From an uncultured archaeon (lineage in GTDB: Archaea; Asgardarchaeota; Thorarchaeia; Thorarchaeales; Thorarchaeaceae): a stretch of 64,000 bases of DNA. Location of the stretch: NCBI GenBank assembly GCA_964610875.1, contig CAZSWP010000001.1, positions 102,161 to 166,160 on the forward strand. Direction: 5' to 3'. The notes below the pieces were generated by a model. It did not search any database and was not told the DNA's origin. It saw nothing but the letters and a program-made list of their open reading frames with translations. Of this stretch, positions 21,821-28,091 are shown piece by piece (the first letter of the stretch is position 1; every line of letters begins with the position of its first letter). A program made the translations under genes and the position numbers.

Positions 21821-24800
21821 TCAGTTGGGGGACATACCGACCTTTATTCTAAGATCATCTATCTCCCAATCTTTCACATAATCATGATCCTTCCATTTCA
21901 CCCTTTCTTTCGGCCCTAGTAGTTTCATCTCTGTTGCTCGTGTTTCATTAGCTAGATAGTCTTCATACATTTCAGCTAACTCAAGTGATTCTTTATCTGA
22001 GAAGTGTACCACTAAAATCAAAGTCTGTTCGACACTAAGATCAAGTTCTTTTCTCATGACCTGTATGCGTCTCGTCACATCCCTTACAAGTCCTTCCGCC
22101 TCAAGCTCTTTTGTTCTTGTAACATCTACGTAGACCTTACCAATTCTACTCTCTGCTTGAGTGAGATGGTCTGGCATTGTCTCAATGAATTCCACATCAC
22201 CTGGTTCGAGAGTGACAGTTTTCTTTCCTACTTTCAGTATGGCCTTTCCTTTTTCTAATTCATCACGCAGTTTACCTGCATCAGCTTTTTCTAGAGCATC
22301 AACTAGTTGCTTCATTAGATCCTTATATTTTGGTCCAAGCGACTTGTAGTTAGGCTTGACTGAAAGCTCTGTATACCCGGCCAACACATCCGTGGTGTGA
22401 ACTTCAAATTCCCTTGTGTTCAAATCCCCAAGGAGGAGGTCTTTCAGTCCTTCTGCTCTCTTTGCTACATCTTCTGAAGCTGCAACAAGTGTAACCTTTG
22501 CAACAGGGTGTCTTAGTTTGACTCCTTTCTTATTTCGAGCATGACTTGATGCAGATCTCAATTCTTGTAGAACATCAAAGGCAGATTCTATCTCAGCATC
22601 GAGTAAGGTTTCATCAACTTCAGGCATATCCGTCATATTCAGAGATTCAGGTAGGTTTTTAGCAAAGCGATTGAGAAAGTTCTGATGGAGATATTCTCCT
22701 AGAAATGGTGTGAATATGTTGAGGCACCGAAGGAGAGTTTCCAATGCATAGTACATCACATCATATGCCATGACCTTCTTTGGATCCTCAGCTTCAAGCC
22801 AGACACGTTTTTTGACGAGAGGCAAGTAAATTCTACTCAGATCCTCGGATATGAATTCTAATAGCACTCTACCTGCATGATGCCAGAGATATTTTTCCAT
22901 GTGCTTATGAAACTCTGCAACAACACTTTGAACTCTCGACAGAAGCCACTTGTCTTCAAGGTCTGAATTCTTTAATTGTTTCATCAATCTTTTCTGATCA
23001 TATTGAAAATCATCGAGGTCCATGTATGTTTCAGCAAACAAAACCACATTCCACAAAACATCCAGTTTCTTACGTAACAATTCTATCTCTTTTGGACTGT
23101 AGTTCATACGTGTCCATGATGCCGTCTTTGTTAGCATGAAAAGCCTGAATGGGTCTGCTCCTGTACTCTCCAAAGCATCTTTTGTCCAGACTACATTACC
23201 CCTGGATTTACTCATTTTCCCTCCATCTTCATCAAGTACATGTTCCTGACTCACACACGCTTTGAAAGCTACACTTCCATGTAGTACCACAGATGTGTAG
23301 AGTAAGCTATAGAACCATCCTCTTGATTGGTCTACAGCTTCCGTGATGAAGTCAAACGGGAATAACTTCTTGAATAGACTTTGGTCTTTCATGTAGCTGA
23401 CACTCGCAGTATGAGCTAATCCCGAATCCAGCCAGCAGTCTGTAACAAATTCCTCTCGTGTCATTGGCTGTCCGCAATCCGGACATTTCAATACAACACG
23501 GTCGACCCATGGCCTGTGCATCTCAAAGTCGCTAGGGACCTTTTCTGCAAGTTCTTTGAGTTCTTTTCTAGAACCTACTACCACCTCTTTGTTACATGCA
23601 CCACATACCCAAACAGGGAGTGGTGAACCCCATATTCTAGAACGTGATATGCACCAATCATCTGCATTAGCAACCCAATCTCCAAACCTGCCAGTTCCAG
23701 CCCAGTCTGGTGTCCAATCAACCATCTTATTCTGTTTTACAAGCTTGTCCCTGATTCCTTCCATTTTCAGGAACCATTGTGTACTATCAGCTATATAGAC
23801 GAGCGGTGAATCGCAACGCCAACAATGAGGATATTCATGAGATAGCGTTTCTTCATGAACCAGTAAGCCTTTCTCCTTCAACATTTTTTGGACTTCTGGA
23901 TTCACATCAAATACATACTTACCTTGGAATATTGGCACTTCATCTGTGAATTTTCCAGTGGTTGTTACAGGACAAAATACAGGGACATCATACTCCTTAC
24001 CGACATTGAAGTCATCTGGACCAAATCCAGGTGCAGTGTGAACAAGTCCTGTGCCATCCTCAATTGTGACATGCGTTCCTGTGACTACTGAGTGCAGGTA
24101 TTTCTCTGAATGTTCTCTATGAAAGGGTACTTCATTTGTGAATGGATGCTCATATTTCCATCCCAACATCTTTTTTCCATTTAGAGTTTCAACTACTTCG
24201 TAGTCATCTACTCCTGCTTTCTCCATTACCGTGTCAACAAGATCTTTTACTATCCACCAATACTCATTTCCAACCTTTATCTTCTCATACTTGTACTTGG
24301 GATGAACTGATACTAGCTCGTTTGAAAGCAATGTGAATGGTGTGGTTGTCCATATGACTATGTATTCGTTTTCTTTGTTAACCAGTTTGAACTTTACATA
24401 TATTGATGGATCCACTTTTGTCTGATAACCTTGCGAGACCTCGTGTCCAGAAAGGGCGGTATTACATCTGGGACATGTTGGATTCACTCGGTAACCTCTT
24501 CCTAGTAGTCCCTTCTTGCTTGCTTGTTTGAGGAAATACCAGACATGTTCTATATAATCATCACGACGTGTTTGATATGCTTGCGGATAGTCTAACCAGA
24601 GTCCCAATCTTATTGAGTCACTTACCCATCTATCAAGATAGAAGTCAACAAGCTCCTTACATTTTGCAACGAATGTTTCTAAGCCCATTGTTGCTTCGAT
24701 ATCTCCTTTCTCTGCAAGTCCCTCGTTTTTCTCCACTTCTAGTTCAACAGGGAGCCCTTGCATATCCCATCCGCCTCTTCTCCAGACATTATATCCCTTC

Positions 24801-25018
24801 ATGGTCATGTACCGGAGTTGTGCATCTTTCATTGCCCGGCCTCTAGCATGTCCTACATGCATGAAACCGTTGGTGGTTGGTGGTCCTTCTAGGAAGTTCC
24901 ATCGGGGTCCTGATTCTCTGAACTTTACCGTCTTTGTATAGATGGCAGTTTCCTCCCAAAATTGGAGGACGTCTTTCTCTAAAGATAATGGGTCATATCT
25001 TTTTGGTAGTGGACTCAT
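21821..25018 (-). CDS. ileS: Isoleucine--tRNA ligase (archaeal/eukaryotic type)
   Basis: EGPPTTNG, HVGH, WTTTP, GTGLVHTAP, DWCISRSRIWG, DQSRGWF, KMSKS. Confidence 0.96.
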   Translation of the reverse strand: MSPLPKRYDPLSLEKDVLQFWEETAIYTKTVKFRESGPRWNFLEGPPTTNGFMHVGHARGRAMKDAQLRYMTMKGYNVWRRGGWDMQGLPVELEVEKNEGLAEKGDIEATMGLETFVAKCKELVDFYLDRWVSDSIRLGLWLDYPQAYQTRRDDYIEHVWYFLKQASKKGLLGRGYRVNPTCPRCNTALSGHEVSQGYQTKVDPSIYVKFKLVNKENEYIVIWTTTPFTLLSNELVSVHPKYKYEKIKVGNEYWWIVKDLVDTVMEKAGVDDYEVVETLNGKKMLGWKYEHPFTNEVPFHREHSEKYLHSVVTGTHVTIEDGTGLVHTAPGFGPDDFNVGKEYDVPVFCPVTTTGKFTDEVPIFQGKYVFDVNPEVQKMLKEKGLLVHEETLSHEYPHCWRCDSPLVYIADSTQWFLKMEGIRDKLVKQNKMVDWTPDWAGTGRFGDWVANADDWCISRSRIWGSPLPVWVCGACNKEVVVGSRKELKELAEKVPSDFEMHRPWVDRVVLKCPDCGQPMTREEFVTDCWLDSGLAHTASVSYMKDQSLFKKLFPFDFITEAVDQSRGWFYSLLYTSVVLHGSVAFKACVSQEHVLDEDGGKMSKSRGNVVWTKDALESTGADPFRLFMLTKTASWTRMNYSPKEIELLRKKLDVLWNVVLFAETYMDLDDFQYDQKRLMKQLKNSDLEDKWLLSRVQSVVAEFHKHMEKYLWHHAGRVLLEFISEDLSRIYLPLVKKRVWLEAEDPKKVMAYDVMYYALETLLRCLNIFTPFLGEYLHQNFLNRFAKNLPESLNMTDMPEVDETLLDAEIESAFDVLQELRSASSHARNKKGVKLRHPVAKVTLVAASEDVAKRAEGLKDLLLGDLNTREFEVHTTDVLAGYTELSVKPNYKSLGPKYKDLMKQLVDALEKADAGKLRDELEKGKAILKVGKKTVTLEPGDVEFIETMPDHLTQAESRIGKVYVDVTRTKELEAEGLVRDVTRRIQVMRKELDLSVEQTLILVVHFSDKESLELAEMYEDYLANETRATEMKLLGPKERVKWKDHDYVKDWEIDDLRIKVGMSPN

Positions 25019-25129
25019 GATAGTCTCCTCTCTGAGGATGAGTGTTTTCTTGGCATGTTTAGCAGAAATAGCCTGCTTATCATAAAAGGCGAGAGCAAAT
25101 TGGCATCACAATTTAATGATATGTCGTCG

Positions 25130-25153
25130 TTATTGAATAATTTGACAATCCAT
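25130..25153 (-). promoter_or_regulatory. Putative leader peptide uORF MDCQIIQ upstream of ileS
   Basis: Minus strand ATG GAT TGT CAA ATT ATT CAA TAA, preceded by SD-like AGGTGAG; tandem Ile codons in the leader of the Ile-tRNA ligase. Confidence 0.6.
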
Positions 25154-25302
25154 CCTTATCTCACCTTATGGAATTACATTTGAGTCCCTAAAGACTCAGA
25201 TAAAAACCTTGGGCTAACTACGCTTGACCAAGGACGTTCAACCAACACTTAATTGGAAGTTCATGAAAAGTTCATTGATGATAAGAATCAGCAATTATTA
25301 AG

Positions 25303-25983
25303 GTGATTCACATGAGTACAATTGAAGACCGGTCTCTTGACAAACTTGCAGATATGATCTACAACGTTCTATGGCAAGATCTTCTCGAAGTATGGCGAGT
25401 CATACGGAAAAAGATGGATGCTGAAGGTGTTGACTCAGTAAGAGCAGCTCTTAAGGGGGCACGAAAAAGATTCATGGACGGTCCCTTTGAGGATCATATT
25501 GAGGTCAGATGGGGAATGAATCTCTGTGTTCACTGCAATGATGATAATATCGAAAAGAATGGCATTGCTTATTTACAACCATCTGGTGATGGACTGGAAT
25601 TCAACCAGTGCTTGAATTGTAGAATCGGCATTCTTTATGATCTTGTTACAGCAAAAGCCACAATGGATTCGTATAATATTGCACTTGGGAAACCAGGACA
25701 ATTTGGTGATTATTCATTCTTTTGGAACGCAATTTTTCCTGAAGAGATGATACCGCTCGCACCAACATATGAAGTTATCAAATCCGGAGAATGGATCGGT
25801 ACAATTTCCTTTGATGATGAACTCAATGTTCGTCATTTGCCTTTCCATAAAATGAAAGATGGTGTACCGAGAGGTGCTGAGGATCCATGGCAAAATGAAG
25901 TGTCAGAGGACATGAAAGAGGCCATTGATAGCTTCATTGAATCAGCACGTGAGCAAATTGAAGTAGTACTCGCCGTTAAATAA
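25303..25983 (+). CDS. Hypothetical protein with possible CxxC...CxxC zinc site
   Basis: 226-aa ORF with CVHC and CLNC; AGGTGA SD precedes ATG 25312, the likely start. Confidence 0.75.
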   Translation: MIHMSTIEDRSLDKLADMIYNVLWQDLLEVWRVIRKKMDAEGVDSVRAALKGARKRFMDGPFEDHIEVRWGMNLCVHCNDDNIEKNGIAYLQPSGDGLEFNQCLNCRIGILYDLVTAKATMDSYNIALGKPGQFGDYSFFWNAIFPEEMIPLAPTYEVIKSGEWIGTISFDDELNVRHLPFHKMKDGVPRGAEDPWQNEVSEDMKEAIDSFIESAREQIEVVLAVK

Positions 25984-25989
25984 GTAGAA

Positions 25990-26310
25990 GTGGAGGGGTG
26001 CTTTTTGCCAAAAGAAAAATTAGTTCGTGATAATATACCTGATTTAATACGAATGAATGGAGATGATCCTCTTCTTCGAACTGCTGAAGGAGAAGAGCTT
26101 GATTATCTACTACGCTTAAAGATACTTGAAGAAGCTTTGGAATTGCTTCAATCGAGCGATTTTGAAGAAGTCGTTGATGTACTAGAAGCAGTGGATGCAC
26201 TCATGAAGCATAGAAAAATGGATCCTGCGATGTTAGAAGTCCATCGTCATGCGAAACGTATGGCGAGAGGCGGTTTTGAGAAAGGGATAGTTCTCATTAC
26301 TGAAGAATAA
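25990..26310 (+). CDS. MazG/HisE-like all-alpha nucleoside triphosphate pyrophosphohydrolase
   Basis: KLVRDNIP...KILEEALE...EEVVDVLEA...RGGFEKGIVL. Confidence 0.88.
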   Translation: MEGCFLPKEKLVRDNIPDLIRMNGDDPLLRTAEGEELDYLLRLKILEEALELLQSSDFEEVVDVLEAVDALMKHRKMDPAMLEVHRHAKRMARGGFEKGIVLITEE

Positions 26311-26441
26311 ATCGGTATCTACTCATTCCCTATTCATACTCTGAAACTTCGGATAAATATTATATGCTTGAACAATGCCATTTCTCTCAGAATACCACCC
26401 TGTTCAGTGGTGGTACCATATATTTACTGGAGCAAGATAAA

Positions 26442-28091
26442 ATGACCGCTGATGAAGTAAAGCCCATCCCTGAGAAACCAATTTCTCATGAGGATGGTAG
26501 CGTTCTTTCTCGATATCATGTAGAGAAATATCCCCCTCGTGAACTTCCATATACTACTCAATCCATTTGTCCTGAGTGCTTAATTGCAAACGATGAAGTT
26601 AATGTGATTGATGCAACTCTATATGAAGAGGATGGAAAAGTTCTCTATAAGAAAACATGCGAGAAACATGGAGAGTATATTGATGTTTACTGGGGAGATG
26701 CAGAGATGTTCAAAAAAGCCTCCCAGTGGTGGTACAAGTCTGTAGGTCTTGATAATCCCCGTACTGAAACTGTGAAGGGGTGCCCCGAAGATTGTGGTCA
26801 GTGTCCTGAGCACAAATCTCATACCGGTTTGGCATTACTTGATGTAACAAATAGATGCAACCTTCGTTGTCCAATATGTTTCGCGATAGCAGCCGAAGGT
26901 GGCGATGTCTATGAACCAACGCCCGAAGAAGTTCTTGAAATGATGAAAAACTTGCGAAGAAATGAACCAGTTCCAGCACCTGCTTTACAATTTGCGGGCG
27001 GCGAGCCAACTGTTAGCAAGCATCTACCACAATATATCAAATGGGCTAAGGAATTAGGTTTCAGACACGTGCAGATTGCAAGTAATGCAATACGTGTTGG
27101 GAAGAGTAAGGAATACTTGCAAGAACTACGAGATGCTGGTCTCTCAACTATCTATATGCAATTTGATGGTGTGACTCCAGAGCCATATATCGAAGCAAGA
27201 GGAACTAACCTACTTGATTTGAAGAAACAAGCTATTCAAAATGCTCGCGAAATTGGAATGGAATCCATAGTTCTTGTACCTACTGTTGTCCGAGGAGTCA
27301 ATGATGACCAAGTCGGAGCAATAGTTGAATACGCAGTTGAGAATGCTGACGTTATTCGCTGTGTCAACTTCCAGCCAGTAAGCATAACTGGTAGAATCGA
27401 CCACAATGCACGAGAGCAGATGAGGATCACTATTCCTGATGTAATTCATTTGATTGAGGAACAGACCGGTGGTAAGATTCCTGCAACCGAATGGTATCCG
27501 GTACCAGCCATGATGCCGGTTGGTCGTGCACTTGGGTTAATGAAAGGCACTCCACAGCTGGAACTCAGCACTCATTTTGCATGTGGTATGTCCACATTCC
27601 TATACATAAATGAAGATGGAAGCTATGAGCCAATTACTAATCTTATCGATGTTGACAAGTTCATAGTGCTACTGGAGGATATTGCCAATATTTATGCAGA
27701 TGGGAAGCGAGCTGCCAGCAAACGCGCGAAAGCAAAACTAGCTGCTGGAATCCGCCATATTAAGAGGAAAGGCATTCTCAAAGACCTTCTAAATGCATTT
27801 TTGAATCGGGGTGACTATGATTCTCTGGCTAAGTTCATGCGACGAGTCATTATGATTGGAATGATGCATTTTCAGGATCCATACAACTTCGACTTAGAAC
27901 GTGTCCAACATTGTGATGTGAATTATTCTGTACCTGATGGTCGAATCATCCCCTTCTGTACAATGAATACAATTCACAGGTCACGTGTTGAAGACAAGTT
28001 CAGTATACCTATAGATGAATGGCGTTCAAGGAGAAAACCCGACAAGGTTGAAGAAGAAAGTATCTCAAAACCATATACTGGTGAAAAATGA
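26442..28091 (+). CDS. tes: Tetraether lipid synthase (GDGT-MAS), radical SAM
   Basis: N-terminal SICPEC...KTCEKHG and GCPEDCGQCPEHKSHT; radical SAM motif CNLRCPIC; GGEPT; NFQPVS; HFQDPYNFDLERVQHC...DGRIIPFC. ATG 26442 follows GGAG. Confidence 0.88.
   Translation: MTADEVKPIPEKPISHEDGSVLSRYHVEKYPPRELPYTTQSICPECLIANDEVNVIDATLYEEDGKVLYKKTCEKHGEYIDVYWGDAEMFKKASQWWYKSVGLDNPRTETVKGCPEDCGQCPEHKSHTGLALLDVTNRCNLRCPICFAIAAEGGDVYEPTPEEVLEMMKNLRRNEPVPAPALQFAGGEPTVSKHLPQYIKWAKELGFRHVQIASNAIRVGKSKEYLQELRDAGLSTIYMQFDGVTPEPYIEARGTNLLDLKKQAIQNAREIGMESIVLVPTVVRGVNDDQVGAIVEYAVENADVIRCVNFQPVSITGRIDHNAREQMRITIPDVIHLIEEQTGGKIPATEWYPVPAMMPVGRALGLMKGTPQLELSTHFACGMSTFLYINEDGSYEPITNLIDVDKFIVLLEDIANIYADGKRAASKRAKAKLAAGIRHIKRKGILKDLLNAFLNRGDYDSLAKFMRRVIMIGMMHFQDPYNFDLERVQHCDVNYSVPDGRIIPFCTMNTIHRSRVEDKFSIPIDEWRSRRKPDKVEEESISKPYTGEK

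Follow-up and report, generated by a model that had tools for sequence, protein, structure and literature searches.

The window, i.e. the whole stretch of 64,000 nt analysed here (positions 102,161 to 166,160 of contig CAZSWP010000001.1, assembly GCA_964610875.1, from an uncultured archaeon of the Thorarchaeaceae), carries on its minus strand a gene for isoleucyl-tRNA synthetase (IleRS), ileS, and the present analysis concerns the leader of this gene and the short upstream open reading frame (uORF) contained in it (Table 1). The ATG of ileS is located at 25018, and the gene is the single IleRS match across the whole genome. The uORF is preceded by an element resembling a B recognition element (BRE) and a TATA box, from which a transcript start at approximately 25177 +/- 3 is predicted, and the comparison of relatives' leaders revealed no second conserved TATA-like block between the uORF and ileS. 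The 0 frame of the uORF stops approximately 110 nt upstream of ileS, and the +1 frame runs on to the gene, its stop codon (TGA, 25017-25015) overlapping the ileS ATG as ATGA in the window. In an Rfam search with permissive thresholds over 24000-26500, no family reached even E = 0.5 and the T-box covariance model was unmatched. No tRNA genes were found within the window, and aragorn identified just 16 tRNAs in this 3.75-Mb metagenome-assembled genome, too few to judge tRNA-Ile or tRNA-Gln.

Table 1. Features of the ileS leader and of its upstream neighbourhood, in window coordinates.
Feature	Position	Strand	Remarks
ileS, isoleucyl-tRNA synthetase, 1065 aa	21821..25018	-	PF00133 (E = 1e-96), PF08264, PF19302 (DUF5915)
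ileS Shine-Dalgarno region AGAGAGGAGA	25024..25033	-	GAGAGGAG kept 6-8 nt before the ileS start; not preferentially paired
+1 frame ORF (K LFNNDDISLN...ERRLS*), 42 sense codons	25015..25143	-	Supported by open-frame comparison and Ile depletion
Helix P1, 3' arm: anti-Shine-Dalgarno TCTCGCCTT (25094-25086) plus flanks	25080..25104	-	Inside the +1 ORF, past the 0-frame stop
uORF, 0 frame, ATG GAT TGT CAA ATT ATT CAA TAA = MDCQIIQ*	25130..25153	-	7 codons
Proposed shift heptamer CAA-AUU-A	25138..25144	-	Re-pairing on AAA is possible for CAA in the P site; AUU (Ile) in the A site would be the sensed codon
Helix P1, 5' arm, covering the uORF Shine-Dalgarno and ATG	25149..25171	-	Pairs with 25104-25080; dG -18.5 kcal/mol
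uORF Shine-Dalgarno AGGTGA	25161..25166	-	7 nt before the uORF ATG; AGG[T/A]GA (near-)invariant in relatives
BRE/TATA-like promoter element TAGCCCAAGG TTTTTATC	25199..25216	-	TAGCCTAAGnTTTTTAAC kept at equal distance in relatives, ~45-50 nt before the uORF ATG
Conserved block CAATTAAGTSTTSG	25242..25255		CAATTAAGTGTTGG on the minus strand
Divergent ORF, 226 aa	25303..25983	+	Likely ATG near 25312; without Pfam family

Two overlapping sets of leaders (28 and 42), amounting to 46 distinct Thorarchaeota ileS leaders in all, were compared. The uORF MDCQIIQ* and its strong Shine-Dalgarno (SD) sequence had been pointed out in an earlier examination of the window made from the letters alone (hereafter, the sequence-only reading), and both are indeed present at 25153-25130. 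All 46 leaders keep the SD together with the start and the first Ile codon of the uORF, and the peptide of each begins with M-D-[C/Y/H/S]-[Q/E]-I. The tandem Ile codons emphasized in that reading stand only as far as the first Ile, which is conserved, but not the second, as the residue following the conserved Ile varies (N in 11, I in 8, R in 5, D in 5, H in 4, and others among 42 leaders). The uORF contains six sense codons in 33 of the 46 leaders. Eighteen family members belonging to different genera keep the BRE/TATA-like block, the SD, and ATG GAT TGY CAA ATY, and the remainder of their approximately 120-nt spacer is nearly unalignable. The codon preceding the conserved Ile, corresponding to the putative P-site codon, is CAA in 44 leaders and GAA in 2, and the Ile codon itself is AUU in 25 and AUC in 21 but never AUA. 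Because AUU and AUC are common codons in the genome (36 and 21 per 1000, respectively), their slow decoding would be conditional on charging, as a sensor needs.

The Asgard ileS upstream regions were also searched for Ile-codon uORFs, as the sequence-only reading had proposed, and conservation was found in Thorarchaeota and in at least 12 other families, in which SD, start codon, and first Ile codon of the uORF occur as well. The mini-ORFs preceding ileS in the other Asgard families are variants on this theme, including M(R)D-x-[Q/E/K]-I, MDRE/QI, MCYFI, MWRN-x-QI, and MRVCEI. In NAA-type leaders, other families included, the codon before Ile is CAA, GAA, or AAA but never NAG, a restriction that can be understood because re-pairing on AAA requires it; in other leaders, of family f14, the slippery site is UUU|A. 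Thorarchaeota with another IleRS type (38% identity) keep the uORF and the +1 ORF alike. The conserved and apparently translated Ile-codon uORF before the archaeal ileS very probably reports the supply of Ile-tRNA. The same arrangement was not found with the nearest non-Asgard IleRS relatives (Bacillota, Iainarchaeum, and Bacteroidota; L171-L181).

Several individual loci deviate from the common form. The leaders L075-L080 (G005, G022, G020, G002, G014, and G017) precede genes for the approximately 38% identical IleRS, of 1117-1158 aa, and contain the uORF MDCQIH*; their +1 ORFs comprise 34-59 codons, and in four of the six the stop codon is the TGA within the SD (GGTGA), 7 nt ahead of the start. 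In L083, L130, and L131 (G359 and relatives), the uORF ATG is replaced by ACG, and an in-frame TTG three codons upstream, preceded by a second AGGTGA, seems to take over (LERTDCQIN*). Elsewhere in the genome, the motif was found only before leuS, and the other GGATGGAYTG matches lie within coding regions reading G-W-I-A. A short ORF at G000:C57:16431 (+) (L249), GGGTGAAGG ATG GAT TGC TTC TGA (MDCF*), is served by a good SD and is not contained in an evident long ORF; its +1 frame is open for >100 codons.

From CAA|AUY onwards, the +1 frame is open for 35-41 codons in the Thorarchaeota leaders, and its stop codon overlaps the ileS start, at +1 (ATGA) or -2 (TAATG), in 27 of 28 and 40 of 42 leaders. 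The stop codons in the spacers are distributed to frames 0, +1, and +2 in the numbers 87, 2, and 40, respectively; the probability that the +1 frame is open in a shuffled spacer is approximately 0.12 per leader, and the spacers form 25 clusters that are mutually near-random in similarity. In 41 of 42 leaders, the distance between the Ile codon and the ileS ATG is 111, 114, 117, 120, 123, or 126 nt. Insertions and deletions thus come in multiples of three, indicating that the frame is read. The +1 peptides show no conservation among leaders. No canonical start codon for the +1 ORF is present upstream of the site in 24 of the 46 leaders, and 16 have none anywhere. In one leader (G027), UAG immediately precedes AAA, and the +1 frame can therefore be entered solely at the slippery site. 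The +1 frames in the other families extend over 19-99 codons, some of them through very AT-rich DNA, and mostly end within approximately 25 nt of the ileS start.

In a few genomes, the synthetase itself is encoded in the +1 frame. The ileS genes of family f29 (L037, L038, and L097 = G317, G320, and G318) contain no ATG, GTG, or TTG before the conserved N-terminal motif, and the +1 frame of the uORF is ileS itself. In f29, the ATGA of the uORF supplies the TGA at which the ileS frame opens, and the sequence read is GGG ATT ACG AAA TTC... Gene callers will misplace the start of genes of this type or call them pseudogenes. L074, which precedes the second IleRS copy of G039 (family f14), contains two Ile sensors in tandem, MRDRQIRS* and (L)RDREIH*; the first +1 frame ends as TTGA on the start of the second sensor, and the second +1 frame is fused to ileS. 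The product is thus encoded in the +1 frame, as an ORF0-ORF1 fusion, in f29 and at the second G039 site but not in the window, where the two reading frames are coupled via ATGA.

A +1 frame that must be readable when Ile-tRNA is short should avoid Ile codons, and this prediction was borne out when the codons were counted. Ile codons account for 33 of 1784 codons (1.8%) in the ileS +1 ORFs, versus 112 +/- 10 expected from shuffles (z = -8), and for 8.7 and 7.9% in the other two frames of the same leaders. Leu is abundant in the +1 ORFs of the ileS leaders (12.4%). The converse is seen for leuS. The leuS leader of the same genome, AGGATGGATTGC GTT CTC (MDCVL...), has the MDC platform in common with the ileS leader but two other codons at its end, and the corresponding layout (GUU|CUC, with the +1 frame ending on the leuS start) holds in 29 of 29 Thorarchaeota leuS leaders examined. 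The leuS +1 ORFs are poor in Leu (2.7% vs 13-17%; z = -8.7), and Ile is not depleted in them (9.0%). The same layout was found in 27 of 28 Thorarchaeota hisS leaders (..V-H, GUU|CAY), the +1 ORFs of which are depleted in His (3 vs 20, z = -4.0), and in proS leaders (MLGE-x-V-P), with GUU|CCR in 25 of 27 Thorarchaeota and CUU|CCG in one more. In each case, the A-site codon matches the downstream gene, i.e. AUY for ileS, CUY for leuS, CAY for hisS, and CCR for proS.

Scanning the other synthetase genes of the genome for cognate-codon uORFs, a further proposal of the sequence-only reading, was thus productive for leuS, hisS, and proS; however, nothing clear was found in the thrS, glyS, serS, aspS, and asnS leaders of the source genome, and its pheS and valS leaders are ambiguous. 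It appears reasonably probable, judging from these leaders, that Asgard archaea use the translating ribosome to sense tRNA charging by means of a family of mini-ORFs, observed for Ile, Leu, His, and Pro, in which a slippery codon precedes one cognate codon. A shortage of the charged tRNA at that codon would cause a +1 shift into a bridge ORF free of cognate codons. The bridge ORF would either deliver the ribosome to the start of the matching synthetase gene or itself begin that gene.

The following individual loci were recorded. The leuS uORF at G000:C12 (L091, minus strand), AGGATGGATTGCGTTCTC, encodes MDCVLAHHR*, and its ATG lies approximately 129 nt before the leuS MEKKW codon; the +1 frame from GTT|CTC is open for 33 codons and ends as TTGA on the leuS start. 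The hisS leader at G000:C45 (L095) reads MKDGGLVH.. with GTT|CAT, and the proS leader at G000:C10 (L093) reads (M)LGECVP.. with GTT|CCG; the +1 frame ends at the gene start in both. The valS gene at G000:C25 (L092) has an open frame without an ATG near its start, in the +1 frame of ATGAAACAGATGGTC (MKQMV..), and may be of the fused type. At pheS of G000:C36 (L094), an SD is followed by ATG TAC TAC CAA TTT (MYYQF..) and a frame ends as ATGA on the pheS start, but the relations between the frames are ambiguous.

Based on these comparisons of leaders, we propose, with a probability of about 0.78, that the ileS leader is a +1 frameshift element similar to that of prfB, which operates at a hungry codon and raises IleRS synthesis when Ile-tRNA is scarce. 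Ribosomes would initiate at the uORF AUG, which is served by a strong SD, and read M-D-C-Q, whereby CAA comes to occupy the P site and AUU the A site. When Ile-tRNA(GAU) is plentiful, Ile would be inserted and translation would terminate two codons further on, at the 0-frame stop codon. When Ile-tRNA is scarce, the A site would remain empty, and peptidyl-tRNA-Gln could slip from CAA to AAA, with UUA being read next. The shifted ribosome would then read approximately 41 Ile-avoiding codons in the +1 frame, unwinding the 3' arm of helix P1 on its way, terminate at the UGA of AUGA, and re-initiate at the ileS AUG, resulting in added IleRS synthesis. That a scarcity of Ile-tRNA leads to more IleRS follows from the fused forms; for the coupled form in the window, we infer this direction of control. 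The combination of a slippery codon with an open, start-less, and Ile-poor +1 frame points to frameshifting and translational coupling, not to attenuation by RNA refolding.

The fold of the whole leader is not significant (z = -1.48). The sequence-only reading had noted that the uORF SD, CATAAGGTGAGA, is complementary to the mid-leader sequence TCTCGCCTTTTATG, and this complementarity is present and recurs in a more general form in the relatives. The uORF SD and AUG pair with a segment that begins 16-47 nt after the Ile codon, past the 0-frame stop and inside the +1 ORF, and this duplex (helix P1) has a mean z of -2.3 against shuffled partners in the 46 leaders. The flanks of the SD and the P1 partner change together in relatives, e.g. 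TCAGGTGA with TCACCTGA and ATAGGTGAG with CTCACCTAT. The helix is defined by per-sequence duplex scores, and the table of pairs is biased by the way in which the duplexes were chosen. RNAalifold applied to a MAFFT alignment of 27 leaders yielded only a 3-bp hairpin, with the 3' arm of P1 out of register. The uORF initiation region is mostly paired, with unpaired probabilities of 0.19 in the window and 0.29 on average over the leaders. It is possible that P1 re-forms over the uORF start after 0-frame termination and thereby closes the uORF, and that ribosomes in the +1 frame hold it open. Two further pairings noted in the sequence-only reading fared differently. The complementarity between CATCCT and AGGATG exists in the sequence. 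The hairpin ACTCAT..CCTC AGA GAGG..ATGAGT, proposed to cover the SD and AUG of ileS, does form in the minimum-free-energy fold of the window, but it is not conserved and is particular to the window, the unpaired probability of the ileS SD and AUG being 0.49 vs 0.46 with a shuffled upstream leader; this site is hence not sequestered. No conserved second helix, alternative hairpins, or U-run/terminator was found in the leaders, and the T4 that follows P1 in the window is not conserved.

These structural data bear on an explanation by classic leader-peptide attenuation without frameshifting, in which a ribosome stalled at the Ile codon(s) would keep P1 open and the freed arm would expose or hide the SD and AUG of ileS. 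The conservation of the uORF, of the Ile codon, and of a helix over the uORF SD and AUG is in keeping with such a scheme, and so is the local hairpin of the window, which can cover the ileS SD and AUG. However, a single Ile codon is conserved, the ribosome binding site of ileS is no more paired than with shuffled leaders, and neither alternative helices nor a terminator is conserved; moreover, attenuation leaves unexplained the open +1 frame that reaches the ileS start, the multiple-of-three spacers, the NAA rule, the scarcity of Ile in the +1 frame, and the fused f29 genes. We consider this explanation very improbable. Of the view expressed in the sequence-only reading, in which stalling at Ile-Ile remodels the leader, the reporting of Ile-tRNA is accordingly retained but the refolding is unsupported, with one Ile codon, an unsequestered site, and no alternative-hairpin logic. 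The +1 ORF could also be entered by initiation, either at a near-cognate AUU/AUC/AUA, since GAU-N always gives an AUH codon in the +1 frame, or at a GUG within the SD, which falls in the +1 frame in approximately one-fourth of the leaders; the AUG uORF would then act as a competing decoy. Yet the spacing between the SD and the AUG is canonical and AUH lies approximately 4 nt further on, the GTG is in frame in a minority only and 24 of the 46 leaders are devoid of a canonical start, and G027 has UAG between the AUH position and AAA. Initiation of this kind does not account for the invariant NAA-AUY, for the match between codon and synthetase (Ile, Leu, His, and Pro), or for the depletion of cognate codons, and it seems no less doubtful than attenuation. 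A further alternative is that frameshifting and coupling are real but constitutive or tuned by something else, e.g. by the short nascent peptide M-D-C, which might act on the ribosome or respond to a small molecule. The conservation of M-D-C (or R-D) beyond what a hungry codon needs, common to the ileS and leuS leaders, would fit this idea, but the leaders of two synthetases combine one prefix with different, gene-specific A-site codons, and the +1 ORFs avoid exactly the cognate codons, an avoidance that is sensible only for frames read during a shortage of the tRNA concerned. To this alternative we attach the smallest likelihood of the three.

A number of observations weigh against the proposed hungry-codon frameshift. 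After the slip, tRNA-Gln keeps just two of three pairs on AAA. No recognized stimulator was found; the sequence immediately following the site forms only a weak hairpin (z = -0.7), the arms of P1 lie at the uORF start and 16-47 nt past the Ile codon, and an SD-like element at the prfB spacing (3 nt) was not found. Moreover, ileS is equipped with an SD of its own that is both conserved and accessible, so that a gain from coupling can only be presumed. The +1 ORF of the window retains two Ile codons, both ATA, and the proS +1 ORFs are not significantly poor in Pro (z = -1.2). An earlier +1 stop occurs in G012 (-25), L153 (-14), and L162 (-4), and two of the six leaders before the alternative IleRS type are also exceptions. 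The GTG within the SD, mentioned above, could provide a start in the +1 frame in about one-fourth of the leaders. The invariant GAU (Asp) and the MDC prefix common to ileS and leuS are left unexplained, as is the excess of UAG as the 0-frame stop (32 of the 46 leaders). Finally, an ileS leader of this type was not found in about half of the Asgard families sampled, and the closed Lokiarchaeia-like genomes G167, G170, and G175 showed no ileS sensor by the criteria used.

Upstream of the leader, a divergent ORF is encoded on the plus strand (Table 1), and its start (CAT on the minus strand) stays beside the ileS leader in several relatives. The block CAATTAAGTSTTSG, situated between ileS and the divergent gene, is conserved in Thorarchaeota at approximately 35-50 nt upstream of the TATA-like box of ileS and may be the promoter of the divergent gene or a regulator site.

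To our knowledge, essentially nothing is known about how archaea match the levels of synthetases to tRNA charging. T-boxes and leader-peptide attenuators belong to bacteria, and signalling of the GCN2 type belongs to eukaryotes. If the proposed frameshift mechanism is true, a sense-codon +1 frameshift serves as a quantitative sensor of aminoacyl-tRNA supply for at least four synthetase genes, in numerous families of that phylum of archaea to which eukaryotes are closest. It would then be a recoding-based system of archaea with the function that T-boxes and attenuators have in bacteria. The few autoregulatory frameshifts on record (release factor 2 (RF2) and antizyme) would be joined by further regulated cases, and hungry-codon frameshifting, so far mainly seen as error, would prove to have been harnessed. 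The mechanism would also account for synthetase genes without an apparent start codon in some genomes, a point of importance for annotation. The modular design, in which one MDC platform carries an Ile or a Leu codon, leads to directly testable predictions.

Neither full-text searches of the literature nor recoding reviews (PMC5009743 and PMC8211752) revealed any report in which a sense-codon frameshift controls a synthetase, but several known systems share parts of the proposed mechanism. The closest is bacterial prfB (RF2; PMC5009743), which also has a short ORF0 and a slippery P-site codon and in which the decoding speed at the A site reports the activity of the product, slow decoding leading to a +1 slip and more product; like prfB, the f29 and G039 forms encode their product in the +1 frame. 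The ileS leader differs in that decoding would be sensed at a sense codon for Ile, the tRNA of which is charged by the gene product, instead of at a stop codon, in that the +1 frame of the window is a 42-codon bridge ending on the ileS start and not the enzyme, in that no SD-like stimulator at 3-nt spacing was found, and in its archaeal host. The frameshifts of yeast Ty1 and ABP140 (CUU-AGG-C) and the hungry-codon frameshifts of starved Escherichia coli (PMC5009743) follow the same heptamer logic, with a P-site tRNA slipping +1 while a scarce aminoacyl-tRNA is awaited; in Ty1, however, a constitutively rare tRNA sets a fixed ratio, whereas the ileS site uses the common AUU/AUC and would thus be a regulator. 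Antizyme (OAZ) is likewise an autoregulatory +1 frameshift acting as a metabolic sensor but has a stop codon in the A site, a polyamine ligand, and a 3' pseudoknot stimulator, none of which was seen in the ileS leader. Bacterial attenuators, such as those of the pheM-pheST synthetase operon and the ilv and leu leaders, also employ a translated mini-ORF with cognate codons, at which the ribosome senses aminoacyl-tRNA. They rely on runs of cognate codons, terminator/antiterminator hairpins, and transcription termination as the output, whereas the ileS leader has one codon and no terminator logic, and its output would be a change of reading frame with translational coupling. It is also unlike translational attenuation of the ermC/cat type, since the ribosome site of ileS is not placed in a conserved helix. 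T-box riboswitches similarly raise the expression of bacterial synthetases when the cognate tRNA is uncharged; they do so through a structured RNA that binds the tRNA directly, whereas in the ileS leader, which has no Rfam match, sensing would be performed by the translating ribosome.

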